A stretch of 63,954 nucleotides of DNA, the filler included, from an uncultured Acidimicrobiia bacterium (GTDB lineage Bacteria; Actinomycetota; Acidimicrobiia; Spongiisociales; JAOTWH01): the NCBI GenBank assembly GCA_964347285.1. It is 3 parts of 3 records of this genome, joined end to end, with 100 filler letters (N's around TTAATTAATTAA, not from the genome) between each part and the next. Parts side by side here need not be neighbours in the genome. Positions count along the whole stretch, not along the records: positions 1 to 29,960 come from CAYFYE010000018.1; 2 more parts are not named here. One strand, written 5' to 3'. Numbering within the stretch: the stretch's first letter is position 1; the number at the start of each line of letters is the position of its first letter. The notes below the pieces were generated by a model. It was given only the letters and a program-made list of their open reading frames with translations, searched no databases and was not told the DNA's origin. Shown piece after piece: positions 1,766 through 62,922 of this stretch. A program made the position numbers and the translations under genes.

Positions 1766-2929
1766 GTGGACTTCGAACTCTCTCCCGAGCTCCGTGAGCT
1801 GCAGCTCACCGTGCGCCGCATGGCGCGGGAGCGGGTTCAACCGGTGGCCCGCCGCCTCGATACGGAGGCGACGTACCCCGAGGAGCTGTTTCGGCTGTTC
1901 GCCGACACCGGGCTGATGGCTCTGGCCATCCCCGAAAAGTACGGCGGCTCGGGGGCCGGAGCGCTCGGCCTGGTATTGGCCATCGAGGAAGTGGCCAAGT
2001 ACTGCCAATCCTCGGCGCTGCTTCTGCTGTTGAGCCGACTGCCCACCGGTCCGATCATCATCTCCGGCTCCCCGGAACAAAACGACCGTTGGGTGCGGGG
2101 GGTTGCCGAGGGAACCCTGCGCGGAGCCTTCGCCCTCTCTGAGCCCGATGCCGGATCCTGGGTGGCCGGGCAGACGACCCGGGCGGCCCGAGACGGCGAC
2201 GGATACCGCATTCGGGGCTCCAAGGTCTGGATGAGCGGGGCCACCGTGGCCGACTTCTACACCGTGTTCGCCAAGACCGACCCCGAGGCCGGGTACAAGG
2301 GGTTCAGCGCTTTCATCGTCCCGCGCGATGCACCCGGGCTGTCCGTGGGCCCAGCCGATCGCAAGATGGGAGTCAAGGCGGTCCCCACGGCCGAGGTGAT
2401 CTTCGACGATGTGTTCGTATCGGCCGACCACCGCATCGGCGAAGAGGGCAGCGGGTTCCGTACCGCCATGCTCGCTCTCAACTCCATGCGTCCGATCGTC
2501 GCGGCGCGGGGCATCGGCCTCGCCGAAGGGGCCTTGATGTATACGGTGCAATACGACAAGGAACGCCGGGCCTTCGGCCGGGCGATCGCCGACTTCCAGG
2601 GAGTCCGCTGGGTGTACGCCGATCTCGCCACCGAGATCGAGGCGGCCCGGCTGCTGACCTATCGGGCCGCCCGGATGGTCGACGACGGCTTCTTCGACAA
2701 GGAGCACGCCCCGTTCCTGTCGATGGCCAAGTACTTCGCCACCGAATTGGCGGTCCGGGCCTCGGGATGGGCGGTCCAGCTGCTGGGCGCCGCCGGGTAC
2801 ATGGAGGATCACCTCACTGAGCTGTGGTACCGCGACGCCCGCCAGCTGACGATCGTCGAAGGCACCAGCCAGATCCAGAAGAACCTCATTGCCGACGGCG
2901 TGGTGAACCAGGATGTGTGGTGGGATTGA
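1766..2929 (+). CDS. Acyl-CoA dehydrogenase
   Basis: AFALSEPDAGS, GSKVWMS, KMG, R.AFGR.I..FQ, GAAGY, IVEGTSQIQ motifs. Confidence 0.95.
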   Translation: MDFELSPELRELQLTVRRMARERVQPVARRLDTEATYPEELFRLFADTGLMALAIPEKYGGSGAGALGLVLAIEEVAKYCQSSALLLLLSRLPTGPIIISGSPEQNDRWVRGVAEGTLRGAFALSEPDAGSWVAGQTTRAARDGDGYRIRGSKVWMSGATVADFYTVFAKTDPEAGYKGFSAFIVPRDAPGLSVGPADRKMGVKAVPTAEVIFDDVFVSADHRIGEEGSGFRTAMLALNSMRPIVAARGIGLAEGALMYTVQYDKERRAFGRAIADFQGVRWVYADLATEIEAARLLTYRAARMVDDGFFDKEHAPFLSMAKYFATELAVRASGWAVQLLGAAGYMEDHLTELWYRDARQLTIVEGTSQIQKNLIADGVVNQDVWWD

Positions 2930-2930
2930 C

Positions 2931-3030
2931 NNNNNNNNNNNNNNNNNNNNNNNNNNNNNNNNNNNNNNNNNNNNNNNNNNNNNNNNNNNNNNNNNNNNNN
3001 NNNNNNNNNNNNNNNNNNNNNNNNNNNNNN
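2931..3030. other. Scaffold gap (100 N) with a 55-nt duplicated overlap
   Basis: 2876-2930 is identical to 3031-3085. Confidence 0.9.
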
Positions 3031-3135
3031 CAGAAGAACCTCATTGCCGACGGCGTGGTGAACCAGGATGTGTGGTGGGATTGACTGCTGGCCCCGGCGA
3101 GGGAACCGGGATGGGCGGGTGAGCGTTTGGTGGGC

Positions 3136-3777
3136 ATGGGAGTGAGCAAGTCACTGCCGGCCGTCGCCGCCTTGCTGCTCATCGTGGCTGCCTGCGGCGG
3201 GGGCACCTCACCGGAGCCGGTCCCGGTCGCTCCGGCCGAAGCCGAAGCCGGCTCGCCGGCCACCGCGGCACCGTCCACCGAAGCGGTCGAGGGGCCGGCA
3301 GGCACCGAGGGATCGACCGCCGATGCTCCGGCGAGTTCGTCCACGAGCGCCGCTCCCCGTCCCGAGGGCCCGGCTGCTCCCGACTTCGAGCTCACCCTGG
3401 GGACCGGGAACGAGACGTTCTCGCTCGGTGCCGAGACGAGGCCGGTGTATCTCGTCTTCTGGGCGGACTGGTGACACCGCTGTCAGCGGGAGTTGCCCGT
3501 TGTCGATGAAATCGCAAAGGACTACCTCGACGAAGTGACCTTCGTGGCCGTCGCCGGCCGCAGCTCGCTGGACGAGACCGTTCCCGTGGCCGCCGAGCTG
3601 TTCTCGGATCGCCTGTTGTGGGGTTACGACGAAGGGTTGTGGGAGGCGTACGAGGTCCTGGGCCAGCCGACCACGTTCCTCGTCACCGGCGACGACATCG
3701 TGATCGGCGGGTGGTTCGGCGAGCAGTCCGAGGAGTTCATCCGCGATCAGCTCGACGGGCTGGTGGCCGTCGGCTGA
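3136..3777 (+). CDS. TlpA/redoxin-family lipoprotein, probable selenoprotein (UxxC)
   Basis: Lipobox IVAAC; APDFEL...VYLVFWADW-TGA(3472-3474)-HRCQRELP continues in frame to 3777 with the cis-Pro motif GQPTTFLV; the ORF track splits it into two ORFs. Confidence 0.85.
3484..3502 (+). promoter_or_regulatory. Candidate bacterial SECIS hairpin
   Basis: CAGCGGG-AGTTG-CCCGTTG stem-loop; loop starts 16 nt after the UGA, with G at loop position 2. Confidence 0.65.
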
Positions 3778-3778
3778 C

Positions 3779-4816
3779 TCACTCCCGCACTGCCGAGGCG
3801 GCCGTGGCCGCGATCAGCTCGGCGACCAGGGCCGGGCCCTCGAAGATGAGCCCGGTGTACACCTGGACCAGATCGGCACCGGCCTCGAGCCTCTCGACCG
3901 CGTCGGCGGCGCTCATCACCCCGCCCGAGGCCACGATCCCCACATGGGGTCCCATGTGGTCCCGTATCCGGCGGACGAGCCCGGCGGCGCCGGCCCGTAG
4001 CGGGGCACCGCTCAAGCCGCCGGGCTCCCCCCCCGCCGCGGAGCACAGCCCGGGGCGGCGTACCGTGGTGTTGGCGGCGATCACCCCGTCGATGCCGGCG
4101 GCGACGATGGCGTCGAGGGCGTTCTCGAGGTCGTTGCCGAGGTCGGGCGACAGCTTGACCAGCACCGGCAGGCCCTTGCCGAGGCGGTCGGCCCATCGGT
4201 TCCGCTCCTCGGTCACCGCAGCCAGGAGACCTCCGAGCTCGGGGCCGGCCTGCAGGTCCCGCAGGCCGGGCGTATTGGGAGAGCTGACGTTGACGACGAC
4301 GAAATCGGCAAGGGGGGCGAGCTTGGCGAGCAGCCGGGTGTAGTCGCCGGAGGCTTCGGCATTGGGGGTGGTCCGGCTCCGGCCCAGGTTGACCCCGATG
4401 ACCGTTCCGGAGGGGCGCGGCTTCCCCAGACGATGGGCTACGAAGTCGGCGCCCCGGCCCGGAAAGCCCATCCGATTGATCACGGCCCGGTCTTCGTCCA
4501 GGCGGAACAGTCGGGGCCGGGGGTTGCCGGGCTGGGCCTGCGGGGTCACCGTGCCCACCTCGATGTGGCCGAAGCCGAGTCGAGCCAGCCCCCGCCAGGC
4601 CAGGCCGTCCTTGTCGAAGCCGGCGGCGAGCCCGATGCGGTTGGGGAAGGTGAGGCCGAGGATCTCCACCGGGGCGGCCGGGGGAGCCGTCCACACGCGT
4701 TCGAGCGCCCATCCGAGCGGAGCGAAGGCCCCGGCCGCCTGGAGCAGCCGCAGCGTGCCGTGGTGGACCCGCTCCGGGTCGAGCCGGAACAGCAGGCGGC
4801 GCACCGCGTCGTACAT
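3779..4816 (-). CDS. pyrD: Dihydroorotate dehydrogenase (quinone), class 2
   Basis: GLAAGFDK, EVGTVTP.AQPGNPRPRLFRL, NVSSPNTPGLR, GGLSG, QVYTG. Confidence 0.95.
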   Translation of the reverse strand: MYDAVRRLLFRLDPERVHHGTLRLLQAAGAFAPLGWALERVWTAPPAAPVEILGLTFPNRIGLAAGFDKDGLAWRGLARLGFGHIEVGTVTPQAQPGNPRPRLFRLDEDRAVINRMGFPGRGADFVAHRLGKPRPSGTVIGVNLGRSRTTPNAEASGDYTRLLAKLAPLADFVVVNVSSPNTPGLRDLQAGPELGGLLAAVTEERNRWADRLGKGLPVLVKLSPDLGNDLENALDAIVAAGIDGVIAANTTVRRPGLCSAAGGEPGGLSGAPLRAGAAGLVRRIRDHMGPHVGIVASGGVMSAADAVERLEAGADLVQVYTGLIFEGPALVAELIAATAASAVRE

Positions 4817-4817
4817 G

Positions 4818-6209
4818 TCAGCCGGCCAGGTGGGCGAGCACCGCTCGATGGTCGGAGGCTTCCACCAGGCCGAGGCGGCGCAGACGGTCGACGAGGTCCT
4901 CGAGGGTGAACAGCGTGTGGAGCCGGCAGCCGGCCGCTTCGAGCGTGGCCTTCGCCCCACTCTGGCGATCGATCAGCACCACCACGTCCCGCACCGACAC
5001 CCCTTCGGCCGCCAGTGCGGCGATGGCTTCCAGCTTGCTGTCTCCGGTCGTCGCCAGGTCGTCGATCACTACCGCCTGCTGGCCCGCCTCGAAGTCCCCC
5101 TCCACGAGGGCTCGGGTCCCGTAGCTCTTGGCCAGACGGCGCGGATAGATGAGCGACCAGGCGTTCTGGAGGGCGATGGCGGTGCCGATCGGCAGAGCGG
5201 CGTAGGGCAGGGCGGCCAGGTGGTCGAAGGCGAGGCCGTCGAGGAGGGGGCCGTAGGCGGCGGCGACGTCGGCCAGCAGTGCCGGGTGGCTCGACAGCCG
5301 GCGCAAATCGATGTAGACGGGAGAGCTGGCTCCTGATTTCAGCGTGAAGTGGCCGAACCGCACGCAACCGGCCCGGAACAGGCCGGCCGCCAACCGGTCG
5401 AGGGCATCGGTCCGGGGGGCGGCCCGGCCGGGGTCGGCACGGGCGGCGTTGATGTCGTCGCGCAGGCGGTGGGCCGCTCCTCCGGGATCGGGGGCGCCGG
5501 CGATGGAGCGGGCCGCCACCATCAGCATGCCCAGTCCGTCGGCGCGCAGCCCGGAGTGAAGGGCGTCGCCCAGATCGGCCCCCTGGGCGCCTACGCCGGG
5601 GGAGAGGATCCACGTCGTCGGGGCCAGGGCGCGGACCCGGGCCAGCGCATCGGGCGCCGTGGCTCCCACCACCAGGCCGATGTCGCCCGGGTTGGGCCGG
5701 CTCATCACCATCCGGGCCACCCGCTCGTAGACCCGCTCCCCTCCGGCCATGGCTTCCTGGATGTCGGCGGCGCCGGAGTTCGAGGTCCGGCACAGCACGA
5801 AGACCGCTGTGCCCGGCCTGAGGAACGGCTCGAGGGCCTCCACTCCGAGGTAGGGGCTGACGGTGACGGCATCGGCGCCCAGGCGGTCGTAGACGGCCCG
5901 GGCATAGGCCTGCGCGGTCGAGGCGATGTCCCCGCGTTTGGCGTCCACGATCACCGGGATGTCATCGGGAACCGCTTGGATCACGTCCCGGAGGGCGGTC
6001 AGGCCATTGGACCCTAGGGCCTCGTAGAAGGCGATGTTGGGTTTGAAAGCGGCCGCCGCGCCTGCCGTGGCCTCGACGAGCCCCAGGCCGAAGGCCCGGG
6101 CCGCTCGGGGAGTGGGCTCGGGGAGGAGGTCGGGGTGGGGATCGATGCCGACGCAAAGGAGCGTGTCGGCCCGGCGGGCCCGGGCTTCGAGGCGGCGTAC
6201 GAACGACAT
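4818..6209 (-). CDS. pyrF: Bifunctional OMP decarboxylase / orotate phosphoribosyltransferase (PyrF-PyrE fusion)
   Basis: N-terminal LCVGIDP, DAKRGDIAST, PGVGAQG; C-terminal FTLKSG.SSPVYIDLR and VVIDDLATTGDS. Confidence 0.93.
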   Translation of the reverse strand: MSFVRRLEARARRADTLLCVGIDPHPDLLPEPTPRAARAFGLGLVEATAGAAAAFKPNIAFYEALGSNGLTALRDVIQAVPDDIPVIVDAKRGDIASTAQAYARAVYDRLGADAVTVSPYLGVEALEPFLRPGTAVFVLCRTSNSGAADIQEAMAGGERVYERVARMVMSRPNPGDIGLVVGATAPDALARVRALAPTTWILSPGVGAQGADLGDALHSGLRADGLGMLMVAARSIAGAPDPGGAAHRLRDDINAARADPGRAAPRTDALDRLAAGLFRAGCVRFGHFTLKSGASSPVYIDLRRLSSHPALLADVAAAYGPLLDGLAFDHLAALPYAALPIGTAIALQNAWSLIYPRRLAKSYGTRALVEGDFEAGQQAVVIDDLATTGDSKLEAIAALAAEGVSVRDVVVLIDRQSGAKATLEAAGCRLHTLFTLEDLVDRLRRLGLVEASDHRAVLAHLAG

Positions 6210-8461: not shown

Positions 8462-8887
8462 CTAGCCCGAGGACGCCTCCTCGCCGCCGGGAGGGGTGTA
8501 TTCCTCGCCGTCGCGGGTCCGGTATTCCTCGTCGTGGCGGATGATCATCGTGTCGGAGTGGAACACGCCGCCTTCCCAGCGGCCCTCCACCACCACGCCG
8601 ATGCCCTCCCGGAACAGCTGCTGGGGTGCCCCTTCATGCACGACCCGGACGGCCTGGATCCCATCGGTCACCTCGAAGGTGACCTCATTCTCGCCGGACA
8701 CCACGGTCCCCTCGACCACCTGCCCTCCGAGCCGGAGCCGTTCGCCCTCGACGGGCCCCTCCTCGAGGAGTTCGTTGGGGGTGCGGAAGTACACCAGGCT
8801 CTCGTTGAGGCTGAAGAAGAGAAACCCGCCGAGGATGGCGACCACCCCGATGGCAGGGATCAGGAAGGCTCGATATTTCTTCAACAC
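8462..8887 (-). CDS. ccmE: Cytochrome c maturation heme chaperone CcmE
   Basis: N-terminal TM, YFRTPNE, RLGG.V..G, LFREGIGVVVEG, heme-binding HDEEY. Confidence 0.93.
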   Translation of the reverse strand: MLKKYRAFLIPAIGVVAILGGFLFFSLNESLVYFRTPNELLEEGPVEGERLRLGGQVVEGTVVSGENEVTFEVTDGIQAVRVVHEGAPQQLFREGIGVVVEGRWEGGVFHSDTMIIRHDEEYRTRDGEEYTPPGGEEASSG

Positions 8888-8900
8888 GGCTTCACCTCTC

Positions 8901-9023
8901 TCACGTCAGTTCTTCCAGCCGTCGGCGGGCTCGGCGCAGGCGGTAGATCGTGAACACCACGTAGGCGAGCAGCGTCCCATACACCACCGAGTAGCCGAAC
9001 ACGATCCAGCCCCAGTCACCCAT
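8901..9023 (-). CDS. ccmD: Heme exporter protein CcmD (40 aa, absent from the ORF track)
   Basis: MGDWGWIVFGYSVVYGTLLAYVVFTIYRLRRARRRLEELT: TM plus basic tail, located between ccmC and ccmE. Confidence 0.8.
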   Translation of the reverse strand: MGDWGWIVFGYSVVYGTLLAYVVFTIYRLRRARRRLEELT

Positions 9024-9738
9024 CGACCCCTCCCAGCTGTGGGGCGGTGACCGCGCTCCCGGCGATAGCCGCCTCGTTGCGGACGAGTGCCACTTCGACC
9101 TCGTCCTCGAGGCGGGCCAGTTCGAGGCGCCTCAGCAGCAGCGCCACGTACAGCATGAGGAAGGCGACGAGCGCGAAGAAGAACGCGGCCAGGAAGGGGG
9201 GGTCCATCTGCAGTCCGCCGGGACGCACCAGCGTGGGCTGCTGGTGGAGCGTCCGCCACCAGATCACCGAGAAGTGCACCAGCGGGATCTGGACGATGGC
9301 CAGCACGCCGAACACCGCCGCCCGCTGGGCCCGGACGCGTGGGTCGGTGAGGCTACGGCGCAGGGCCAGGTAGCCGAGGTAGACGAAGAACAGCACCGCG
9401 GTGAGGACGAGGCGGGCGTCCCAGGTCCACCACACCCCCCAGGTGGGCTTGCCCCAGATCATCCCGGTGAGGATGGCCGTTCCCGTGAATACGACGCCCA
9501 CCTCGGCGGAGGCTCCGGCCAGCCGATCCCAGCGCAGATCTTTGCGCAGCAGATAGGCGGCGCTGCCTGCCATGGTCACTGCAAAGGCGAGATACGCCAA
9601 GAAGATCGACGGGACGTGCACGAACAGCATCCGGGCCAGGTCGCCCTGGGTCTCCTCTGGAGGGACGAACACGGCGGCGATGAGGGCGGAGAGCACGGCG
9701 GCCACCGCCGCTACCTCGACCAACCGGCGCCGCGTCAT
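9016..9738 (-). CDS. ccmC: Heme exporter CcmC
   Basis: FVHVP, WWD motif WGKPTWGVWWTWDARL, WWRTLHQ. Confidence 0.94.
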   Translation of the reverse strand: MTRRRLVEVAAVAAVLSALIAAVFVPPEETQGDLARMLFVHVPSIFLAYLAFAVTMAGSAAYLLRKDLRWDRLAGASAEVGVVFTGTAILTGMIWGKPTWGVWWTWDARLVLTAVLFFVYLGYLALRRSLTDPRVRAQRAAVFGVLAIVQIPLVHFSVIWWRTLHQQPTLVRPGGLQMDPPFLAAFFFALVAFLMLYVALLLRRLELARLEDEVEVALVRNEAAIAGSAVTAPQLGGVDG

Positions 9739-10421
9739 CTGTTGACCTCCTGGAGTGGGCGAGCCGTCGTCACCCCTGCGATGGCGAGGATGAGGTTCAT
9801 CGTCACCAGCAGGAGAATCCAGCCAAGGATACTTTCGCTCAGGCGCAATCCCTCCAGAGCCTGGGTGGCGCCCAACAGGAGGGGGATGGCCAGTGGGGCG
9901 ACGAGCAGGGGCACCAGGGCCGCTCCGGACCGGGCCCGTATCACCACCCCTCCGGCCAGCGTGCCCAGCTGGCCCAGTCCGCCGGCCACCAGCGGGATGA
10001 GCACGAACAGCCACGGCCACCCCGTGATCCGGGCGTCGTACAGGGCCAGGGCCACCGGGAGCAACAGCGCTTCGAACGCCAGCAGGAGGATCGTGTTGGC
10101 GCCGGCCTGGCCCACGTAGCGAGCAGCCGGATCGATGCCGAGCATGCCGAGCAGATCACGCTGGGCCTCGGCATCGGCGGCACTCTGGCGCAGGGCCACC
10201 AGCATTCCGAACAGCAACACCACCGACCAGTAGATGCCCGGCCCGATACGGCGCAGCAGTGGTACGTCCACCCCGACGGCGAAGGGAATCAGCATGAGGG
10301 CGATGGCGCCGAAGGGGATCGTCACCGCCACCACCTCGCCCCGGCGCCACTCGGTACGCAGGTCCTTCCGGGCGATGATCGCCGCCTGCGTCCAAAACGA
10401 GACCTCGGCGGCAGCCTGCAT
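9735..10421 (-). CDS. ccmB: Heme exporter CcmB
   Basis: KDLRTEWR, six TM helices, LVPLLVAPLAIPLL; position in the ccm operon. Confidence 0.88.
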   Translation of the reverse strand: MQAAAEVSFWTQAAIIARKDLRTEWRRGEVVAVTIPFGAIALMLIPFAVGVDVPLLRRIGPGIYWSVVLLFGMLVALRQSAADAEAQRDLLGMLGIDPAARYVGQAGANTILLLAFEALLLPVALALYDARITGWPWLFVLIPLVAGGLGQLGTLAGGVVIRARSGAALVPLLVAPLAIPLLLGATQALEGLRLSESILGWILLLVTMNLILAIAGVTTARPLQEVNR

Positions 10422-11068
10422 CAGGCGATCTCCCAGAGCTTGCCGTCGTTGAGCTCGAGCATGCGGTCGGACAGCGGAGCCGTCCAGTCTTCCTGGTGCG
10501 ATACGACCAGGGCGCCCCCCCGGCGGGCCTGCACGGTCTTGACCACGTGATCGACCAGCTCGACTGCGGCGGGATCGAGGCCGGCGTGGGCCTCGTCGAA
10601 GAGGAGCAAGTCGGGCTCGAGCAGAAGGATGCGGGCGAACTCGGCGCGACGCTGCATGCCGAACGAGCACTCGGAGGCACGCCGGCCGGAAGCCCGCGAC
10701 AGCCCTACGGCATCGAGCACCTCCTTCACCCGCCGCTCGCCCTGGCGGACGAAGCGGGCCACGAAGGCGGTGTTTTCGGCAAGGGTCAGCTCCGGGTAGA
10801 GGGCGGGGCCGTGTCCGATGAGACCGATGCGGCGGCGCACGTCGAGCCGGTTCTCGTTCTTCAGCTCGACGCCGAGGACCGAACCGGTTCCCTCGTCGGG
10901 CCGGAGCAGGGTGGCGGCGACTCGCAGGAGTGTGGTCTTGCCCGAGCCGTTGGACCCGCGTATCCCGATGACCTCGCCGGGGACCAGTTCGAGGTCGAGC
11001 CCGCGCAGCACGGGTGTACGACCGAGGCGCACACCGACGCCGCTGAGAGAGAGAAGCGGGGGAGCCAC
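10421..11068 (-). CDS. ccmA: Heme exporter ATP-binding protein CcmA
   Basis: GSNGSGKTT, CSFGMQRR signature, LLFDE; GTG start after TACAAT. Confidence 0.9.
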   Translation of the reverse strand: MAPPLLSLSGVGVRLGRTPVLRGLDLELVPGEVIGIRGSNGSGKTTLLRVAATLLRPDEGTGSVLGVELKNENRLDVRRRIGLIGHGPALYPELTLAENTAFVARFVRQGERRVKEVLDAVGLSRASGRRASECSFGMQRRAEFARILLLEPDLLLFDEAHAGLDPAAVELVDHVVKTVQARRGGALVVSHQEDWTAPLSDRMLELNDGKLWEIA

Positions 11069-11127
11069 GGGGCGATTGTACCGGGGGGTGGGGGGCGATC
11101 CCCGGTCGTGCCGGGGCGGCCGGGTAG

Positions 11128-11829
11128 TCACAGAGGGCGGGGCTGTTCCCGGCGGGTCCGGATGAGGATCCACGCTAGAGCCGCCAAACCGACCGCCAGG
11201 GCCGCGACGTACCAGACGACCGGGCGGTTGCCCAGCGACGGGCGCAGGGGTTCGGTGGCCAGGCGGATGGCTCCGGCCAGGGCCAGTCCGAGGGCGGCGA
11301 CCGCCCCGAGGGGCGGAACCCTGCGCTTCCAGGCGATGAGGACCACGACCGCTGCTGCGAAGAGAAGTGCGGTGTAGATCCCCTCAGGATGCCGAGTGAC
11401 TTCGCCGTTGCCCACGGCCATCGCCCACGGCAGGTCGGAGGGGGTACCGTGGCAGGCATCGCGCACCAGGCATCCGGCGTGCCAGCCCGCCAATCCGGCC
11501 AGGGCGGCGGCGGCGACGCCGTCGGCGGCGGCGCCGATCTCGCCCCGGACCAGCACGGCGAAGCTCCCCAGGGCGGCCACCGCTGCCCAGCCGGTGGCGA
11601 CGCCGGCCCTGACGATGAGGATGTCACCGGGATGGCTGATCGGGTTGACGCCGTCACCGATCATCGCCGCCAGGCGGCCCACGACCAGGCCGATGAACCC
11701 GGCAGACAAAGCGAGGTCCCACAGGTCCCTGGTGCACTCGGCGGCGTTGCCGCGCCTCACCTCCCACCACAGCACCCCGTACAGCAGCGCCACGCCGACC
11801 GCGGCGGCGCCGAGCAGCGAGAACTCCAT
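11128..11829 (-). CDS. Prolipoprotein diacylglyceryl transferase (Lgt)-like membrane protein
   Basis: VGRL, GC.....C.G.PSDLPWAM, RHP..IY, R...E.LR motifs of the Lgt family. Confidence 0.7.
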   Translation of the reverse strand: MEFSLLGAAAVGVALLYGVLWWEVRRGNAAECTRDLWDLALSAGFIGLVVGRLAAMIGDGVNPISHPGDILIVRAGVATGWAAVAALGSFAVLVRGEIGAAADGVAAAALAGLAGWHAGCLVRDACHGTPSDLPWAMAVGNGEVTRHPEGIYTALLFAAAVVVLIAWKRRVPPLGAVAALGLALAGAIRLATEPLRPSLGNRPVVWYVAALAVGLAALAWILIRTRREQPRPL

Positions 11830-12317
11830 CAGGTAGACCTGACGAGCTCGTCGATGTGCAGCGCCAGGGTCCGCTCGTCGATGACGCCGCTGTGCAGATG
11901 GCTCAGGTCACCGCCGGGATGGAAGAAGAACGTCAGAGGAACGCCCCGTCCGCCGAGCGTTGCGGACACGTCGCCGGGTGGATCGGAGAAGTGCTCGAAG
12001 CCGGTCAGATCGAACTCGTCCAGGAACGCCCGGGAATCGGTCTGCCGGTCGCGGACGGCCACACCGACGAAACGGATCTCCTCGCCGAAGCGCCGATGGG
12101 CGGTGCGCAGGAGTGGGGCTTCGGAGCGGCACGGGATGCACCACGACGCCCAGATGTTGACCACGACCGGGCGCTCCGATTCGGCCAGAAGCGCCTCGAT
12201 CTCGGCGGGGCCGACTTCAGGAAGGGGAGCCCCCCCGGAGGGGCTGCCGGCCGGACCCGAGCACGAAGCAACCACGACCAGGATTGCCGCGGAGAGGAAT
12301 GGGGTGCGCCGGTGCAC
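11829..12317 (-). CDS. TlpA/ResA(CcmG)-like thiol-disulfide oxidoreductase lipoprotein
   Basis: Lipobox VASC, VVNIWASWCIPCRSEAP, GVPLTFF. Confidence 0.88.
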   Translation of the reverse strand: MHRRTPFLSAAILVVVASCSGPAGSPSGGAPLPEVGPAEIEALLAESERPVVVNIWASWCIPCRSEAPLLRTAHRRFGEEIRFVGVAVRDRQTDSRAFLDEFDLTGFEHFSDPPGDVSATLGGRGVPLTFFFHPGGDLSHLHSGVIDERTLALHIDELVRST

Positions 12318-12350: not shown

Positions 12351-13101
12351 TCAGCCGTTCCGAAGCCAGAGCACCACCGGATCGTTCTCGGACGCCACGA
12401 CCCCGCCGGCCACCTCTTCCGTTATCGCCAATCCGGCGATCTCTCCAGTGACCTGGAACGGGGACACGCCCGGATCAGGCCCGAGGACTCCGGCCGATAC
12501 GACGGTCGTGCCCACGATCGCCCACAGCTGGTAGGTGCGGTCTGGGGACAGGGCCGGCAGGCCGTCGGAGATCAGATAGCCCACGCCGTCGGCCTGGAGG
12601 ACGATCGTGGCCTCGGCTTCCGGCACCTCTTCGGGAGCGGTGAGCGTGACGACCTCCGAGCCCGGCGCCGCCAGGGCGGCGCCGGCGGCCTGGGCCAGAC
12701 GGTCCCCCTCGAGTTCGGCGCGGAACTCGTCCAGCCGGCTCTCCTGCTGGGCCACCCTCACCCCGAGTACGGCGACGGCCACCGCGGCCGCCGCCGCGAA
12801 TGCGGTCACTGCCTGGAGCAGACGCCGCCGCCCTCCCAGCTTGGCCACCGGGGGCGAGCTCGAGTGGCGGCGGGACCTCCTCCAGTCGGGAGGCGATGGC
12901 CGTCCACATCGCGGCCGGGGCCTCTTCACGGTTCGAGAGGGCGGCGGCGATGGTCGCCATGGTCGCCCGATAGTCGTCGACCTCGGCTTGCTGGTCGAGA
13001 TTTTCGGCAAGGTGAGCTTCGACCCTGGTTCTCTCCCAATCTTCGACGGCGTCGAGGGCGTATGGGGCGAGGAGGTCGTCGATCGCGCCGAGGTTGCTCA
13101 T
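12351..13101 (-). pseudogene. rskA: Anti-sigma-K factor RskA, frameshifted
   Basis: N-terminal LLAPYALDAV...EAHL (ORF 12475-13101) joins TM + RskA C domain (YQLWAI, AITEE..GG) in another frame; +1 base in a C5 run near 12850. Confidence 0.75.
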
Positions 13102-13710
13102 GTGCTCACCATCCCGGCTTCGGCCAACTCGGTCCTCAGCTTGCGCAGCCCGGACCTGATCCGACTCTTCACGGTTCCTTCCGGCTGGTCGAGGGAGCGG
13201 GCCACCTGCTGGTAGGTCTGGCCCCCGAAGTAGGCCAGCTCGATGGCGTGTCGCTCACCGTCGCTGAGGGTCTCCAGCGCCTCTCGCACCTGAGCCGAGG
13301 CAACCCGCGACCACACCTCTCCCTCGACGTCCTGGCCCCCCCTCCGGCGCCAGCTTCGCCTGGCGCTCTTCGCGGCCGCGCCGGGCGCCCTCGGCTCGAA
13401 TGAGGTCCACGCTGCGGCCGTGGGTGTCGGCCAGCAGGAACGAGCGCAGTGAGCCCCGGTTCACGTCGAACCGCTCCGGCCTGTCCCACAGGCGCAAGAA
13501 GACCTCCTGGGTGACCTCTTCGGCCAGGGAGGGGTTGCGCAGCAGCCGCTGGGCCAGTGCATACACGCTTCCGCCGTGTCGTCGGTACGTCTCAGCCAGG
13601 GCCTCGGGGTGCCAGCGGCCGACCGCCACCACCAGCGTACCGTCGCTCGCCCGGCGCAATTCTCGCTCGGTCATCTCCGGGGTATTCGGCGCCGGGGGGG
13701 GATTCGACAT
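13098..13710 (-). pseudogene. sigK: ECF sigma factor SigK-like, frameshifted
   Basis: Region 2 (AEEVTQEVFLRLW..PERFD..RGS) and region 4 (LAYFGGQTY..VA..L..PEGTVKSRIRSGL) lie in different frames; +1 G in a G7 run at 13336-13342. Confidence 0.78.
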
Positions 13711-17460: not shown

Positions 17461-19092
17461 TCACAACTCGATGCGCTCCAGGGCCGGAACCGGCCGGACC
17501 GATGAGGCAAAGACCCCGCTCACACCCTCGAGCACCACGTCGCCGTTCGAGAGCCACTTCCAGATGAGGTGGGCCTCCTCGGCGTCGGCACTGGATCGGG
17601 GTACCGGCGTCCACTCGCCCTGGGGCGGGGCGAGAGTGGTGAGGAGCGGCGGGGCCGCGCCCCGCCAGGCGGCCACCAGGCGGCCGCGCTCCAGCAAGGC
17701 GCCGTTGCCGGCGCCGTCGACCGCACGCACCAAACCGGCCTCCTGGAGGGCGCACCACGCCCGGCGGCGCTCCAGCGCCCGGGCGAGAGCTCGATAACGG
17801 TCCCGCAGCCAAGCCGCCTCCTCGAACCGACTACGGCGGGCGTGAGCCGCCACCATCTCGGCGAGAGGATCCAGGAGCACACGATGATCGCGCTCGACTC
17901 CCTCCAGCAGTCGTTCGATCACCTCGCCGTAGGTTCCTTCGTCGGCATCCCCCGAGCAGGGGCAGGTGGCCAGGCCGAGCTGGGCGAACGCGCACGGCGC
18001 CTGCCGAGTCCCCGGCGACCCGGTGCAGCGCCTCAGCGGAAGGGCGTCCCACAGCGCGGTGACGATCAGCTGGGCCGACTTCCTGGTGCGAAACGGCCCC
18101 AGGTAGAGAAGGGCGTCTTCACGCAGGGTCCTCACCATCGACAATCGAGGGAATCGTTCTCTGGTGAGCTTGACCCAGTGGTCGGTGCCTCGGGGCCGAG
18201 AGCGGCGGTTGTAGCGGGGGGAATGGGCGTTGATGAGCCGAACCTCGGTGATCGATGCTTCCAGCTCGGTTTCACAGAGCCGGTAGTCGATGTCGGCCAA
18301 CTCCCGGAGCATGTTCGCCACGGTGCGCCTCCGGTCGCCGTAGAAATAGGCCCGGACCCGGGACCGGAGGTCCTTGGCCTTGCCCACGTAGAAGACCGTC
18401 CCGCTCCGGTCCCGGAACAGGTAGACGCCGGAACGTCGGGGCAGCCCGTCGGCGAGCCGGAGCTTGTGGTAGTGGGGAGTCCCGCGGGCGGAGGGGAGAG
18501 CCAGCAGGTCGTCGAGGTGGGTGGCACCGATGGTCCCGGCTCGTTCCAGCAAGCCCCAGAACACGTGGGCCGTGGCGGTGGCGTCGTCGAGGGCCCGGTG
18601 AGTCGGGGCCACCGGCGAGCGGAAGTAGGCGGCCAGGGTGGCCAGCTTGAGGTTGCGCACCTCGGTGCGTATCAGGCGCCGGGCCAGGGCGGCGGTGTCG
18701 GCCGACCGGTTGGGCAGGCGCCCATACCCGAGCCGCTCGGCGGCGGCATTGAGGAACGACAAGTCGAAGCGGACGTTGTGGCCGACGATCACCGCGTCGC
18801 CCAGGAACTCGAGGAAACTGGGCAGGGCTTCCTCGATCTTGGGGGCCTCGACGACCATGGCGTGAGTGATCCCGGTGAGCACGGTGATGAACGGGGGGAT
18901 GGCGGTCTCCGGATCGACCAGCGTCTGGAAGGTGCCGGCCGGTTCGCCCCCGATGAACTTCACGGCGCCGATCTCGGTGATCGCACAATCGGCGGGAGAG
19001 CCTCCGGTCGTCTCGAGATCGACCACACAGAACGGCACTTCCGACAGGGGCGCCCCGAGGTCGTCGAAGCTGCGCTGGAGCGGGATCGCCAC
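17461..19092 (-). CDS. DEDDh exonuclease (DnaQ-like) fused to GIY-YIG/UvrC-like domain
   Basis: VVDLETTG, HNVRFD, HRALDDA; GVYLF....G.VFYVGKAKDLRSRV. Confidence 0.9.
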   Translation of the reverse strand: MAIPLQRSFDDLGAPLSEVPFCVVDLETTGGSPADCAITEIGAVKFIGGEPAGTFQTLVDPETAIPPFITVLTGITHAMVVEAPKIEEALPSFLEFLGDAVIVGHNVRFDLSFLNAAAERLGYGRLPNRSADTAALARRLIRTEVRNLKLATLAAYFRSPVAPTHRALDDATATAHVFWGLLERAGTIGATHLDDLLALPSARGTPHYHKLRLADGLPRRSGVYLFRDRSGTVFYVGKAKDLRSRVRAYFYGDRRRTVANMLRELADIDYRLCETELEASITEVRLINAHSPRYNRRSRPRGTDHWVKLTRERFPRLSMVRTLREDALLYLGPFRTRKSAQLIVTALWDALPLRRCTGSPGTRQAPCAFAQLGLATCPCSGDADEGTYGEVIERLLEGVERDHRVLLDPLAEMVAAHARRSRFEEAAWLRDRYRALARALERRRAWCALQEAGLVRAVDGAGNGALLERGRLVAAWRGAAPPLLTTLAPPQGEWTPVPRSSADAEEAHLIWKWLSNGDVVLEGVSGVFASSVRPVPALERIEL

Positions 19093-29960: not shown

Positions 29961-30060
29961 NNNNNNNNNNNNNNNNNNNNNNNNNNNNNNNNNNNNNNNN
30001 NNNNTTAATTAATTAANNNNNNNNNNNNNNNNNNNNNNNNNNNNNNNNNNNNNNNNNNNN
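29961..30060. other. Artificial contig linker (N-TTAATTAATTAA-N)
   Basis: All-frame stop spacer at 30005-30016 within N run. Confidence 0.95.
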
Positions 30061-38328: not shown

Positions 38329-39129
38329 ATGTCGAAGACCGCAGCGTGGAAGGTGGTCAAGGCCGGTGAACACGATCCCAGGATCGTCACCGACCAGCTG
38401 GTCACGGAGGCCCCCGTCGAGATCCTGCTCGGGAAGATTCCGTTGGCCGTGCTGATGCGGACACCCGGAGACGACGAGGATCTGGTACTCGGCTTTGCGA
38501 TTACGGAGGGGATCGTGCTCGGCCCGGCCGAGGTCGGGCGCGTCGCCATCGTGCCCGGTGACCCGCACGAGAACCGATTGGAGCTGCAGCTGGCCGAGGG
38601 AGTCCAGGTCGATCCGGAGCAGTTCCGGCGCAACGTGTTCGCTTCGTCCTCGTGCGGCGTATGCGGCAAGGCGTCGATCGATGCGCTCCGAGTGGCGGCC
38701 CCACCCCCTCCCCCGGGCCCCAGCTTCAGCGCATCGGATTTGCTGCGGCTGCCTCACGTGATGTCGGAGGCGCAGGCCACTTTCGAACAGACCGGCGGTC
38801 TGCACGCCGCCGCCCTTTTCACTCCCAGCGGCGAGCTGCTGGCGATCCGGGAGGACGTGGGTCGTCACAATGCCGTCGACAAGGTCGTCGGCGCCCTGGC
38901 CGCCGAGCGCTGGCCGCTGGGCGAGCTCATTCTGCTGGTGTCGGGCCGGGTCTCGTTCGAGGTCGTGCAGAAGGCTGCTGTAGCCGGAATACCCGTGATC
39001 TGCGGGGTGTCGGCAGCATCGTCGCTGGCGGCGGAGCTCGCCGAGGAACTGGGCTTGACCGTGATCGGCTTTCTACGCGATCGGGACTTCAACATCTACA
39101 GCGGTGCCGGTCGACTTCAGGTCGACTGA
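38329..39129 (+). CDS. fdhD: Formate dehydrogenase sulfurtransferase FdhD
   Basis: MRTPG.DEDL..GF..TEG, SSCGVCGK, TGGLHAA, EDVGRHNAVDK. Confidence 0.95.
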   Translation: MSKTAAWKVVKAGEHDPRIVTDQLVTEAPVEILLGKIPLAVLMRTPGDDEDLVLGFAITEGIVLGPAEVGRVAIVPGDPHENRLELQLAEGVQVDPEQFRRNVFASSSCGVCGKASIDALRVAAPPPPPGPSFSASDLLRLPHVMSEAQATFEQTGGLHAAALFTPSGELLAIREDVGRHNAVDKVVGALAAERWPLGELILLVSGRVSFEVVQKAAVAGIPVICGVSAASSLAAELAEELGLTVIGFLRDRDFNIYSGAGRLQVD

Positions 39130-59776: not shown

Positions 59777-59876
59777 NNNNNNNNNNNNNNNNNNNNNNNN
59801 NNNNNNNNNNNNNNNNNNNNTTAATTAATTAANNNNNNNNNNNNNNNNNNNNNNNNNNNNNNNNNNNNNNNNNNNN
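59777..59876. other. Artificial contig linker
   Basis: N run with TTAATTAATTAA at 59821-59832. Confidence 0.95.
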
Positions 59877-60300
59877 CCATGAACGCCGTGAAGACGACCA
59901 CCGCCACCTTGCGAGAGGCGGCCCGGCGGGCGGGATTGCGGTCGATGTAGGGGAGGACCACCAGCCCGATGATGATCCCGGTGGGAACGAACACTCCGGC
60001 CACCACCGGGTGGAAGTGGGCGAGCAGTTCCTGGAGGCCGATGAAATACCAGGGCGCCTTTTCGGGATTGGGGGTCTCGTTGGGGTTGGCGATCTCTTGC
60101 AGCGGAGCGTCGAAGAAGAGCGAGACGACCAGCACGAGCAGGAGGACGGCGATTGTGGCCACGGCGTGACGGACCAGTAGATGGGGCCACACCATGACCA
60201 GCTGCTGTTCCTCGGGCACCTTGCGCTCGCCGGCGGCCGGTTCGCCGGGTACCACTCCGAGCACCCGCTTTCCCTCGACGAGGCGAGGCTCACTGTCCAT
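59877..60300 (-). CDS. Cytochrome b C-terminal / subunit IV (PetD-like), 3' truncated
   Basis: WPHL, APL...ANP..TPNPEKAPWYFIGLQELL, LPYIDR. Confidence 0.85.
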
Positions 60301-61018
60301 CAGCGCCCCCGCCGTCGAGCATGGCGTCCTTTCGCCACCTCCACAGATGCACCGCCACCAGCACCACCGCCAGGGTGGGCAGCACCGCGACGTGGAGGAC
60401 GTAGAACCGGAGCACGGTGGCGCTCCCGATTTCTGATCCGCCGAGGAGGGTCTGCTGGGTCTGCTCGCCGATGAAGGGAACGAAGGCGGCGATGGAAGTC
60501 CCCACCGTCACCGCCCAGTACGCCAGCTGGTCCCAAGGCAACAGGTAGCCGGTAAACGACAGCAGCAGCGTGAGGAAGAGGAGGACGACCCCGATCACCC
60601 AGTTGAACTCACGGGGCGACTTGTAGGCCCCTCGATAGAAGACCCGGGCCATGTGGGCGGCCACCGCGATCACCATCAGGTGAGCCGCCCAGCGGTGGGT
60701 GTTGCGAATGAACTGCCCGAACCCCACCTCGGTCTGCAAGGTCTGCATGTCGCTATAGGCGGTGGTGGGGGAGGGCACGTAGAAGAACATCAGGTAGATG
60801 CCCGAAACGATCAGCGACACGAAGAGGGTCACCGAGGCCACTCCAAGGAACCAGGAGTAGCGGAAGGTGATCTCCTCGCGGCGAACCTTCACCGGGTAGA
60901 TGTGCAGAAAGAAGTTGGCCCAGTGGGCGGCGGCTCGATCGCGAGCGGTGTCGCGGTCCGGAACGCGAAAGACCGACTTCCAGGCGTTCGACTCACGGAC
61001 GCGATCACCGAGCTTCAT
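60290..61018 (-). CDS. Split cytochrome b (b6-like N-terminal chain)
   Basis: YVPS...AY, RNTHRWAAH...H, REFNWVIG, TGYLLPWDQ.AYWA, RFYVLH-14aa-H. Confidence 0.92.
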   Translation of the reverse strand: MKLGDRVRESNAWKSVFRVPDRDTARDRAAAHWANFFLHIYPVKVRREEITFRYSWFLGVASVTLFVSLIVSGIYLMFFYVPSPTTAYSDMQTLQTEVGFGQFIRNTHRWAAHLMVIAVAAHMARVFYRGAYKSPREFNWVIGVVLLFLTLLLSFTGYLLPWDQLAYWAVTVGTSIAAFVPFIGEQTQQTLLGGSEIGSATVLRFYVLHVAVLPTLAVVLVAVHLWRWRKDAMLDGGGADGQ

Positions 61019-62814
61019 CCGACCGAACCTGCCGTCACCGGCACACCCACCCCCGACCATACGCCCATGACCAGGGCATCGGTCGGGCACCGTTCGATGC
61101 ACAGGGCACACCGGATGCACTTGGTCTCGTCGAGGAGCAGGGCCGTACCCGATTCTCCGCTGCCCAACTCGGCCGCGGGAACCAGCGAGATGAGATCGAG
61201 CGGGCACACGTCGGAGCACAAGCCGCACAACACGCACTTGTCGGTCTCGAGGAGGATGTTGGCGAAGCAGCGGAGACAGCGTTTGGCCTCGCAGCGGGCC
61301 AGCTCCTCGCTGAAACCGATTTCGACCTCGCTGAGGCCGACCCGCCGCTCGCTGGGAAGGGCGGGAATGGGGAGCCGATCGAAGCTGTCGTAGTCGTCGT
61401 CGAAGCGGTGGAATTGGTCCAGGACCACCATCTGGCCGGGGGGCTCGGCCTCGGCGGCTTCGCCGCCGAGGGCGGTGTGGATACGGGCGGCGGCCTGCCT
61501 ACCGTCGGCGATGGCGTCGATGAGATTGCGGGGCCCTTTGGCGGCGTCGCCTCCGGCCCACACGAGGGGCAAGCTGGTGGCGAGGGTGTTGGGGTCGATC
61601 TCGATCGTTTGGCGGCTCGAAATGGCCGGTCCGTTGGGGCCCAGGGCCTCGACATCGACGGCCTGCCCGATGGCCAGAATGACGGTGTCGGCCCCGATCG
61701 TCTGGTGGTCGTCGGTGTCGAAGACGGGGGCAAAGCGTCCCTCCTCGTCGAACACCGACACGACCCCGATCGTGTCGACCCCGGTGGCGGTGCCGTTGTC
61801 CACGGTGATCGAGGCCGGTCCGCGCCGGTGCACGAATCTGATGCCCTCGATGGCGGCTTCTTCCAGCTCGTACTCGGCGGCCGGCATCTCCTCCTGTGAC
61901 TCCAGGGCGACCACGGTCACCTCCCGGGCTCCGGCCCGTACGGCGGACCGGGCGGCGTCTACGGCCTCGGTGATGCTCGACATCTCATCGGCTTCCTCGT
62001 AGCGCTCGGCCAACTCCCGGCCCTCGTAGGCGGCGGCCCGCAGTGCGGTCCGGGCCGCGTCCATGGCCACATTGCCGCCCCCGATCACCACGACCCGCTC
62101 CCCGACCTCGACCTGGAATCCCAGGTTGATGTTGAGAAGGAACTCGATGGCGCGAAACACGCCGTCGGCTTCGTGGCCTTCGATGTCGAGTCCCCTCCCC
62201 AGGGAGGCTCCGATGGCCAGGAAGATCGCATCGTGGCGGTCGCGTAGTTCGTCGAGGGTCACGTCCCTTCCCAGCGCGGTCTCCACCCGAACGTCGACGC
62301 CCATGTCCACGATGGCCTGGATCTCGGAGCGGAGGAGGCTGCGGTCGAGACGGTACTCCGGTATGCCGAGCAGCATCATGCCTCCTAGCTCCCGGGTCGC
62401 CTCGTACACCGTGACCCGGTATCCCATGAGGCGCAGATCGTGGGCGGCGGCCAGCCCGGCCGGCCCCCCTCCGACCACCCCGACGCTGGCGAGGCGCTCG
62501 ACGGGAGGAGGCGCCCCCACCTCGTGCCATCGGCTGTCGGGACCCGCCTCGGCGCCGTACTGCTCGGTCACGAAACGCTTCAGGGCCCGTATGGCAATCG
62601 GCTTGTCGACGGCTCCCCGGCGGCAGGCATCCTCACACGGGGCGGCGCACACCCGGCCGCACACGGAGGCAAACGGATTGGGGAGGCGGGCGGTCAGATA
62701 GGCGGTGAGGTCGTCGCCGTCGGCGATGGCGGCCACATACATTCCGGCGTTGGTGTGAACCGGGCACGCCGCCAGGCAGGGAATGTTGCGGTCGTAGTAG
62801 TGCAGCTCGTCCAT
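61015..62814 (-). CDS. GltD/NfnB-like NAD(P)H:flavin Fe-S oxidoreductase with C-terminal 2[4Fe-4S] ferredoxin domain
   Basis: PC..ACP, CGRVC..PCE..C, GGGPAG, GIPEYRL, GGGNVAMD, EAKRCLRC, CVLCGLC...CP, CIRCALC...CP. Confidence 0.88.
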   Translation of the reverse strand: MDELHYYDRNIPCLAACPVHTNAGMYVAAIADGDDLTAYLTARLPNPFASVCGRVCAAPCEDACRRGAVDKPIAIRALKRFVTEQYGAEAGPDSRWHEVGAPPPVERLASVGVVGGGPAGLAAAHDLRLMGYRVTVYEATRELGGMMLLGIPEYRLDRSLLRSEIQAIVDMGVDVRVETALGRDVTLDELRDRHDAIFLAIGASLGRGLDIEGHEADGVFRAIEFLLNINLGFQVEVGERVVVIGGGNVAMDAARTALRAAAYEGRELAERYEEADEMSSITEAVDAARSAVRAGAREVTVVALESQEEMPAAEYELEEAAIEGIRFVHRRGPASITVDNGTATGVDTIGVVSVFDEEGRFAPVFDTDDHQTIGADTVILAIGQAVDVEALGPNGPAISSRQTIEIDPNTLATSLPLVWAGGDAAKGPRNLIDAIADGRQAAARIHTALGGEAAEAEPPGQMVVLDQFHRFDDDYDSFDRLPIPALPSERRVGLSEVEIGFSEELARCEAKRCLRCFANILLETDKCVLCGLCSDVCPLDLISLVPAAELGSGESGTALLLDETKCIRCALCIERCPTDALVMGVWSGVGVPVTAGSVG

Positions 62815-62922
62815 CAACAGCGCTGTTCGCCTGCACGCTACTCGGTGATGAGCCGATCCCGGCCGCTGCCGGCAAATACTGGTGCGACGGGTGCGCCAAC
62901 AATAGGGTCGGACGATCGCCGC

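Follow-up and report, generated by a model that had tools for sequence, protein, structure and literature searches.

An in-frame TGA followed by a conserved SECIS-like hairpin points to a lipid-anchored thioredoxin-fold selenoprotein in an uncultured Acidimicrobiia bacterium

The stretch of DNA considered here (hereafter the window; 63,954 nucleotides at 68% G+C, from the uncultured Acidimicrobiia bacterium assembly GCA_964347285.1) carries, after an acyl-CoA dehydrogenase gene and convergent with pyrD, a coding sequence at 3136..3777 (+) that is one open frame except for an internal TGA, and that very probably, on the strength of sequence comparison, is a single gene encoding a selenoprotein. 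A first-pass annotation of the window had proposed at this site a hidden, lipid-anchored, TlpA-like redoxin with a UxxC active site, in which U stands for selenocysteine (Sec), followed by a hairpin resembling a bacterial selenocysteine insertion sequence (SECIS), and the conserved TGA, the covariation of the hairpin and the predicted fold described below support that proposal. Two open reading frames (ORFs), 3127..3474 (+, 115 aa, ending in ...VYLVFWADW) and 3493..3777 (+, 94 aa), lie in the same frame (3493-3127 = 366), and the sole stop between position 3127 and the terminal TGA at 3775-3777 is the TGA at 3472..3474 (+), which agrees in coordinates and frame with the split first described. 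The codons downstream of this TGA read CAC CGC TGT CAG CGG GAG TTG CCC GTT GTC, and the read-through product of 216 residues has the sequence FWADW-U-HRC-QRELP around it, with the putative selenocysteine (U116) at the first-cysteine position of a CxxC motif and the resolving cysteine of U-H-R-C (C119, TGT at 3481..3483, +) at the second. Translation probably begins at ATG 3136 (alternative start TTG 3127), and the true stop of the gene, TGA 3775..3777 (+), lies beside the end of the convergent pyrD frame at 3779; homologues terminate within a few codons of the same point. A reassigned genetic code was rejected because TGA is an ordinary stop in this genome segment, terminating 34 of the 46 candidate ORFs with high G+C at third codon positions in the window (manual count).

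The predicted protein is organized in three parts: a lipoprotein signal peptide (3136..3195, +) in which a charged start leads into a hydrophobic stretch and the lipobox L-I-V-A-A-C, whose lipidated cysteine would be encoded by TGC 3193-3195; a low-complexity linker rich in Ala, Pro, Ser, Thr and Glu (residues 24-79; 3196..3363, +), variable in length and sequence among homologues; and a ResA/TlpA-like thioredoxin-fold domain (residues 80-216; 3364..3774, +) identified by AlphaFold2, Foldseek and profile search. A lipobox-like pattern after a hydrophobic stretch was found by regular expression in at least 78 of 81 sequences (the window and the 80 related loci introduced below), with a lipobox signal also visible by eye in L054 and L055, where the expression missed it, and an ambiguous case in L078. 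The protein is thus predicted to be extracytoplasmic, held by a lipid anchor, as the first-pass annotation had it.

The evidence for the thioredoxin fold runs across the TGA. In Pfam, the read-through product matches AhpC-TSA (PF00578; 30.9 bits against a gathering threshold of 26) over residues 82-192, which spans the TGA, and the Thioredoxin and Redoxin matches likewise continue through it. The AlphaFold2 model built from an 80-row alignment has a mean predicted local distance difference test score (pLDDT) of 96.2 and a predicted template modelling score (pTM) of 0.91, and it places the active site at the start of helix 1, which begins at model residue 37; the N-terminal extension and central insert that mark ResA/CcmG proteins are part of this fold. 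The top Foldseek match against the PDB is Bacillus subtilis ResA (1st9_A; template modelling score, TM, 0.89 over 136 columns; root-mean-square deviation 1.5 Å; 26% identity), with further matches to a Bacillus ResA-like protein, Mycobacterium tuberculosis DsbF (0.86), CcmG (1kng, 0.82) and Etrx1/2, and a profile search of the PDB returned Etrx1 (3e-18), ResA (8e-17) and DsbF (1.5e-15). In the profile alignment, the family motif W-U/C-x-x-C-x-x-E-x-P falls on W-C-E-P-C-K-K-E-F-P of ResA, and an invariant Q-P at model positions 100-101 aligns with the L-P of the ResA cis-Pro loop.

A search of predicted proteins returned only four full-length relatives, of which the three close ones (P0002-P0004, 58-59% identity) carry WCPxC at the active site. 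Taken alone, these three cysteine proteins would fit a nonsense mutation in the window, and we therefore scanned the DNA of relatives directly. Across genome contigs, 223 stretches matched the peptide pattern and 143 of these encode a relative; the best 80 of the 143 were analysed, all of them metagenome-assembled genomes, one per species, at 42-59% identity to the window protein (tblastn, best segment) and labelled mostly as Acidimicrobiia, Acidimicrobiaceae or Actinomycetota, with some named only "bacterium" and three Acidobacteria/Acidobacteriota. The first active-site position is TGA in 77 of these 80 loci and TGC or TGT in the other three (L009, L027, L058), and the frame after this codon is open in all 80, for ~84-106 further codons. 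Beyond the TGA, the 80-row protein alignment shows no variation at the resolving Cys (80/80 rows), at one Glu, Pro, Trp and Gly each, or in the Q-P loop. In P0002-P0004 the counterpart of the TGA is the first Cys of WCPxC, in L009, L027 and L058 a Cys codon and in ResA the first Cys of WCEPC, consistent with the original placement of the TGA on the first Cys of the thioredoxin motif.

The relatives also bear on why such a gene would escape standard gene callers, as had been anticipated. The 21 other database entries (P0007-P0027) are C-terminal fragments only, 86-100 aa long and without a Pfam domain, and the named ones are called "hypothetical protein". Their false starts lie either at a conserved TTG (Leu) codon in the loop of the hairpin (3493-3495 in the window) or at a GTN or ATG just before the second Cys. 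The hairpin that would mark the Sec codon thus also supplies a false start, because its loop holds the conserved TTG.

This SECIS-like hairpin occupies 3484..3502 (+), starting 9 nt after the UGA, and has the form originally described: a 5' arm CAGCGGG (3484-3490), a loop AGUUG (3491-3495) and a 3' arm CCCGTTG (3496-3502), with 16 nt between the UGA and the loop and a G at loop position 2, then U. It forms seven pairs including one G-U, with an energy of -10.5 kcal/mol in the window, and 3481-3482 may pair with 3504-3505 as a lower extension of the stem past a U-U mismatch. In a 2026 review (PMC13188914, Fig. 2), bacterial SECIS elements are given an apical loop of 3-9 nt, an upper stem of 4-16 bp, a G at loop base 1 or 2 (often then G or U), a UGA-to-loop distance of 16-37 nt and a minimum free energy of at most -7.5 kcal/mol. 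The window hairpin falls within these published ranges (5-nt loop, 7 bp, 16 nt, -10.5 kcal/mol). Compared with the bacterial SECIS consensus (bSECISearch model; Escherichia coli fdhF and fdnG), it is alike in its site 3' of the UGA inside the coding region, its small apical loop with G-U at positions 2-3 and its 7-bp upper stem, whereas its 16-nt spacing is the shortest that the range permits, it has no known sequence relation to the fdhF and fdnG elements, and it is unusually conserved, with an identical 13-mer in 60 of the 80 species. This 13-mer, CGGGAGTTGCCCG, occurs exactly once, at the Sec site only (both strands), in each of those 60 loci; the window holds one exact and two one-mismatch matches (0.32 expected), and the one-mismatch copies (18294-18306, 62007-62019; minus strand), which encode R-E-L-A with no TGA upstream, were set aside as chance.

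Conservation of the hairpin follows the TGA. The window and the 77 TGA loci give 78 TGA forms, which align without gaps over 66 nt around the TGA (the three Cys forms being left out of this alignment). A hairpin in the same register at -7.5 kcal/mol or below is present in 73 of the 78, with 5-7 contiguous pairs, as against 1-2 contiguous pairs in the three Cys forms, none of which keeps the hairpin; the loop is AGUUG in 65 of the 78. When the two-pair lower extension is included, 92.6% of 702 cells are paired across the 78 sequences, and four of the nine pairs have changed on both sides (17 such cells), a covariation score that none of 500 shuffles reached. For example, at pair 20:36, 61 sequences have GC, 10 have AU, one has CG and two have GU, and at pair 23:33, 69 have GC and three have AU. 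The covariation check suggested together with the original proposal thus turned up compensatory changes among TGA forms and loss of pairing in Cys forms, just as the accompanying check of homologues turned up a conserved TGA with rare Cys.

A number of results weigh against a selenoprotein, starting with the hairpin itself. Folded as a single sequence, a 65-nt stretch of the window reaches -19.1 kcal/mol (z = -0.68), with 50 of 200 shuffles as good, and because this energy is unexceptional the case rests on comparison with relatives. RNAalifold on the 78 sequences gave only four pairs in a slipped register at -0.79 kcal/mol and did not recover the hairpin named above, and sliding the partners by +3 raises the covariation score (0.187 vs. 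0.162), though with only 76% of cells paired vs. 93% and zero changes on both sides; the registers are ambiguous because the stem is a G-run facing a C-run. Five TGA forms lack the common hairpin, shifted in L032 and L042 and replaced by a different, weaker one in L070, L074 and L080 (CCGGU-GGUCA-AUCGG, loop starting 26 nt after the UGA; Sec codons at L070:10229, L074:10154 and L080:874), a divergent subclade whose element may be a second type of SECIS in the one family. In Rfam no family matches: at E <= 10 over 3300-3800 it gave only chance microRNA and small-RNA matches, and at gathering thresholds it found only RNase P in the whole window. At the protein level, no NCBIfam model names the Sec protein, the only matches being generic and below their cut-offs (ResA PRK03147, 47.8 vs. 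170; DsbE TIGR00385, 26.9 vs. 123), and for this reason we describe it as ResA/TlpA-like in fold and motif and do not name it ResA or CcmG.

The decoding machinery belongs to the same side of the balance. Searches with E. coli K-12 proteins (tblastn) found no selA, selB or selD in the window and the 80 flanks, 1.31 Mb in all (best E 0.46), ARAGORN found no tRNA-Sec in the same DNA, and NCBIfam named none of 59 window proteins SelA, SelB or SelD; these negatives are weak, because only ~20 kb per genome was covered. (ARAGORN also called a 90-nt "tRNA-Thr (cgt)" at 3917-4006 (-), which was rejected both as a tRNA and as tRNA-Sec: it lies inside the pyrD frame and is unseen by Rfam.) Nor did scans for in-frame TGA codons uncover a second selenoprotein candidate in the window: the relaxed scan gave eight sites, of which only 3472 is credible, the other seven being true stops between same-frame neighbours or lying in antisense frames. 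The strict scan, run over all loci, flagged another 37 candidates, of which none has a Cys-type context, and is insensitive, because it recovered only 25 of the 78 family members. Finally, no CcdA/DsbD-type electron donor appeared in the window or among the 25 commonest neighbour clusters (24 of them Pfam-annotated).

Among the alternatives, the one that survives these data best, and which we nevertheless hold to be improbable, is that the UGA is conserved but is not, or not mainly, a Sec codon: a near-cognate Trp or Cys tRNA would read through it, or it would act as a regulated terminator yielding a 115-residue anchored product, with the hairpin serving for pausing or read-through. The failure to find Sec machinery in the window or the 80 flanks fits this view, as do a hairpin that is short and unexceptional in stability alone and three TGA forms that have only a weak alternative hairpin. 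However, the UGA stands exactly on the catalytic Cys and its natural variants there are only Cys, which is the signature of Sec/Cys exchange, and the hairpin agrees with published descriptions of bacterial SECIS elements. Conservation at the protein level moreover covers the C-terminal 100 residues, among them the resolving Cys, the cis-Pro and the Glu of ResA type, and would be pointless if translation usually stopped at the UGA, and the N-terminal piece left by such a stop is mostly low-complexity linker. Sec decoding has also been reported in cultured Acidimicrobiia: in Peng et al. (2016), Ilumatobacter coccineus, I. nonamiensis and Candidatus Microthrix parvicella are SelD-positive and Sec-positive with 15, 10 and 7 selenoproteins, respectively, and Acidimicrobium ferrooxidans is Sec-negative. 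Within the class, a 2026 bioRxiv preprint also lists selA, selC and selD in all 84 Actinomarina genomes, with selB below the profile threshold.

A second alternative would leave the hairpin without RNA function, as a by-product of the peptide C-R-R-E-L-P-V-V, with Sec insertion, if any, directed by another signal. The peptide RELP is indeed nearly invariant, and G/C-rich codons pair easily, so that even slid registers keep 66-76% of their cells paired. Because the stem overlaps the conserved peptide R-R-E-L-P-V-V, constraint on the RNA was assessed through synonymous codons, and these are fixed over the hairpin only: its Leu codon is TTG in 83% of cases vs. 15% gene-wide (most of that 15% coming from this very column), its Arg codon CGG in 96% vs. 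41% and its Pro codon CCC in 91% vs. 43%, whereas equally conserved residues elsewhere use their codons at background frequencies. In addition, Cys forms lose the pairing even though in two of the three, L009 and L058, the Glu and Pro codons beyond the second Cys persist, compensatory double changes are found at three pairs, and in L056 the amino acids are altered (C-A-R-E-L-P-A-L) and a perfect stem (GCGCGGG/CCCGCGC) is retained. Taken together, these patterns make a mere by-product very unlikely. As for a pseudogene or an error, i.e., a TGC/TGT-to-TGA nonsense mutation or a sequencing or assembly fault splitting an ordinary CxxC TlpA-like gene, we find it scarcely credible: TGA is one base away from TGC or TGT, the nearest full-length database proteins have Cys and a contig join (Ns and a 55-nt duplicated overlap) lies ~440 nt from the gene, but neither cause can explain a TGA kept in 77 of 80 independent species-level genomes with the downstream frame intact in all and a following hairpin under selection of its own, and the Cys of the database proteins is a bias arising because Sec forms are stored only as fragments.

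For the selenoprotein that we favour, the observed single frame, conserved TGA and hairpin, predicted fold and lipobox allow us to infer a course of Sec insertion and catalysis. The product would be made as a prolipoprotein whose signal peptide ends at the lipobox Cys (3193-3195), by which it would be anchored on the outer face of the cytoplasmic membrane, and a flexible Ala/Pro/Ser-rich linker would carry the ResA/TlpA/CcmG-type thioredoxin-fold domain. During translation, the UGA at 3472-3474 would be decoded rather than read as a stop, with the hairpin at 3484-3502 binding SelB loaded with Sec-tRNA(Sec), selenocysteine being delivered at the UGA and termination occurring at the next TGA (3775-3777). 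In the active site W-U-x-x-C-x-x-E-x-P, the exposed first position would, by analogy with ResA, act as the nucleophile on a substrate disulfide, a selenenylsulfide with C119 would resolve the mixed intermediate, and a membrane electron shuttle would re-reduce the enzyme. An extracytoplasmic thiol-disulfide reductase is the most likely role; any particular substrate could be named only with low confidence.

Evolutionarily, a quick maximum-likelihood tree (92 rows, 139 columns, with the Sec/Cys column masked and support limited to the Shimodaira-Hasegawa-like approximate likelihood ratio test, SH-aLRT) separates the Sec family from its Cys-type paralogues (SH-aLRT 98). The five Cys forms (the three loci plus P0002 and P0003) are scattered tips within one supported 39-row subclade (96), and the tree, which is short and has many unresolved forks, requires four changes of Sec/Cys state. 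The paralogue root and the scattered Cys tips suggest that, in the sampled family, Sec is ancestral and the Cys forms are secondary.

Turning to the surroundings of the gene, the opposite strand holds, 4.7-8.5 kb downstream, ccmE, ccmC, ccmB and ccmA (8465..11173, -; NCBIfam; starting 4.7 kb downstream), which belong to System I cytochrome c maturation, an Lgt-like gene and a Cys-type paralogue of the selenoprotein; no ccmF or ccmH is present in the window. The paralogue (11829..12317, -), which adjoins the Lgt-like gene and ccmABCE, is CcmG/DsbE-like with a W-C-I-P-C active site, and its translation from the window, NIWASWCIPCRSEAP, bears out the CIPC motif first reported there. It scores 58.2 bits against DsbE TIGR00385, below the cut-off of 123 and above the 26.9 of the Sec protein, and filing the Sec protein as CcmG was rejected, since this paralogue is the better candidate and sits in the ccm cluster. 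The Lgt-like gene itself (11131-11829, -; prolipoprotein diacylglyceryl transferase family, Pfam 55.5 bits) lies beside the paralogue, and in 22 of the 80 loci the Sec-lipoprotein gene has an Lgt-like gene as its immediate downstream neighbour, on the other strand. Between the selenoprotein and the ccm genes lies, in this genome only, a pyrD, pyrF/E, pyrB and pyrC block (pyrD in 0/80 flanks), including a fused pyrF-pyrE gene (4821-6209, -; orotidine-5'-phosphate decarboxylase / orotate phosphoribosyltransferase).

Among the relatives, trpD lies upstream in 53 of the 80 loci, 43 loci have a Cys-type paralogue on the opposite strand downstream, and ccmB, C, E, F or H occurs in the flank in 24 (in 22 when only the 53 loci whose downstream sequence reaches 8 kb are counted). 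A different arrangement is found in 13 loci (L016, L029, L039-L041, L045, L046, L050, L051, L055, L059, L063 and L072), where the redoxin gene has a Fur-family gene immediately upstream and a CbiM-PDGLE gene immediately downstream, all three on one strand, the last followed in 10 of the 13 by a CbiQ and/or ATP-binding cassette (ABC) ATPase gene, as in importers of the Ni/Co energy-coupling factor type. In 20 of the 24 loci with a CbiM gene, at most 205 nt separate the redoxin stop from the earliest possible start of CbiM, and the Fur / Sec-redoxin / CbiM array is possibly an operon linking the selenoprotein to metal uptake. Broadly speaking, this neighbourhood points to redox work in the envelope, either on cytochrome c maturation or on metal-centre or metal-uptake proteins, the hint toward cytochrome c maturation or metal handling coming from the gene neighbours in relatives.

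Several features of the window touch on selenium or on the assembly. An fdhD gene (formate dehydrogenase accessory sulfurtransferase) at 38329-39126 (+) scores 268.8 bits against a cut-off of 269 and has no gene for formate dehydrogenase next to it; because no bacterial selenoprotein is commoner than FdhA, the genome may encode one at another site. At 59824-62817 (-), three adjacent genes have sub-threshold matches to families named after selenium-related contexts, namely an ExtQ-like gene (42 bits), an ExtP-like cytochrome b (267 bits vs. a cut-off of 290) and a GltD-like Fe-S flavoprotein with weaker matches to "diclust_near_Sec" and YgfK, and the relaxed in-frame-TGA scan saw no Sec codon there. 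An extracytoplasmic function sigma factor (SigK-like; 13101-13710, -) appears as two overlapping ORFs in different frames, 13258-13710 matching the N-terminal and 13101-13316 the C-terminal part of the profile, an apparent frameshift or sequencing error, and an anti-sigma gene follows at 12354-13010. Upstream of the selenoprotein gene, a run of 100 Ns (2931-3030) is flanked on both sides by an identical 55 nt (2876-3085), as if two overlapping contigs had been left unmerged; this 55-nt duplicate repeats the 3' end of the acyl-CoA dehydrogenase gene, and the selenoprotein gene starts ~100 nt into the second contig. Two further gaps, each a pair of 44-N runs with 12 bases between them, interrupt LipL-like esterase and 5'-nucleotidase-like ORFs (29961-30060) and ABC-2 permease and ExtQ-like cytochrome b ORFs (59777-59876). 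The RNase P RNA detected by Rfam is of bacterial class A and lies at 1-321 (-; 233 bits), cut by the start of the window.

With respect to known proteins, the closest structural parallel is B. subtilis ResA (1st9/1su9), an apocytochrome c reductase with the same W-C-x-x-C-x-x-E-x-P layout and cis-Pro loop. Both proteins are extracytoplasmic and membrane-tethered, and cytochrome c maturation genes lie near the gene in part of the relatives. However, identity to ResA is only 26%, Sec replaces the first Cys here, and the window protein has a lipid anchor and a long linker where ResA has a transmembrane helix; the genomes studied here also use System I (ccm), whose gene cluster includes a distinct CcmG-like paralogue of the Cys type. 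The Streptococcus pneumoniae proteins Etrx1 and Etrx2 (4hqs, 2yp6, 4hqz) are surface-exposed lipoprotein thioredoxins according to their PDB titles and share the same architecture, and M. tuberculosis DsbF and DsbE (3ios, 1lu4) are actinobacterial extracytoplasmic relatives, but all of these are Cys enzymes at 24-29% identity to the window protein, and their partners were not seen beside the gene. The Etrx proteins reduce MsrAB2.

Selenoproteins with a UxxC site are, in themselves, well established. The parts consulted of Zhang et al. (2006), the GOS (Global Ocean Sampling) study and a 2026 review table include a peroxiredoxin (Prx)-like thiol:disulfide oxidoreductase (PF00578) and a Prx-like 3/Redoxin family (PF08534), together with a thiol:disulfide interchange protein and a UGC-containing TlpA family, as established or high-confidence cases; the UxxC families are high-confidence predictions in the review table, and some are among the most abundant in the marine metagenomes of GOS. 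The window gene resembles the Prx-like families (the thiol:disulfide oxidoreductase, Prx-like 1 and Prx-like 3) and the Redoxin family in its thioredoxin fold, in Sec replacing the first Cys and in its matches to both PF00578 and PF08534, and, as far as those sources go, in having many Cys homologues and in the logic of its prediction (Cys/Sec pair, TGA homologues and bacterial SECIS). It fits the descriptors of the Prx-like thiol:disulfide oxidoreductase family (PF00578, U-H-R-C), and its lipid anchor and near-universal conservation in one class are not among the traits described for these families in the parts consulted. The literature on selenoproteins of Acidimicrobiia or of TlpA type, in the portions accessible to us, contains no description of this lipoprotein clade. 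The first-pass annotation had presented the gene as an unusual find in a phylum where Sec use is sporadic, and of this, an unannotated member stands, while the rarity was overstated, as UxxC families are established and Sec use is reported in Acidimicrobiia. The gene is accordingly an unannotated, lineage-wide addition to the established UxxC Prx-like/redoxin/TlpA selenoproteins, and it opens no new category: few selenoproteins are predicted more often in metagenomes than those with a UxxC site in a thioredoxin fold.

It is tempting to speculate further, in terms that we ourselves consider doubtful, that the Sec-lipoprotein would be the ancestral, nearly universal extracytoplasmic selenoenzyme of much of Acidimicrobiia, that it would serve envelope redox biology as a second, dedicated arm with the Cys-type CcmG-like paralogue of the ccm cluster as its partner, and that in one clade it would sit in a compact Fur / Sec-redoxin / CbiM-CbiQ-ABC operon; selenium supply would then gate the maturation of cytochromes or metal centres outside the cytoplasm, and the rare Cys forms would be reversions. 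If true, this would concern a lineage that is abundant in soil, marine and sludge environments.

For annotation, the consequence is that public protein sets systematically miss the gene, holding fragments only, although 77 of 80 genomes carry the in-frame TGA. The near-identical hairpin offers a probe for SelB recognition in this lineage and for its other selenoprotein genes. A selenoprotein specialist will find this unsurprising, but the example is a clean one: it extends across the lineage, is predicted to be extracytoplasmic and comes with a SECIS element of unusual conservation. Selenoproteins are more often discussed as cytoplasmic redox enzymes, and a lipid-anchored selenoenzyme across a class would imply that the thiol chemistry of the envelope depends on selenium.

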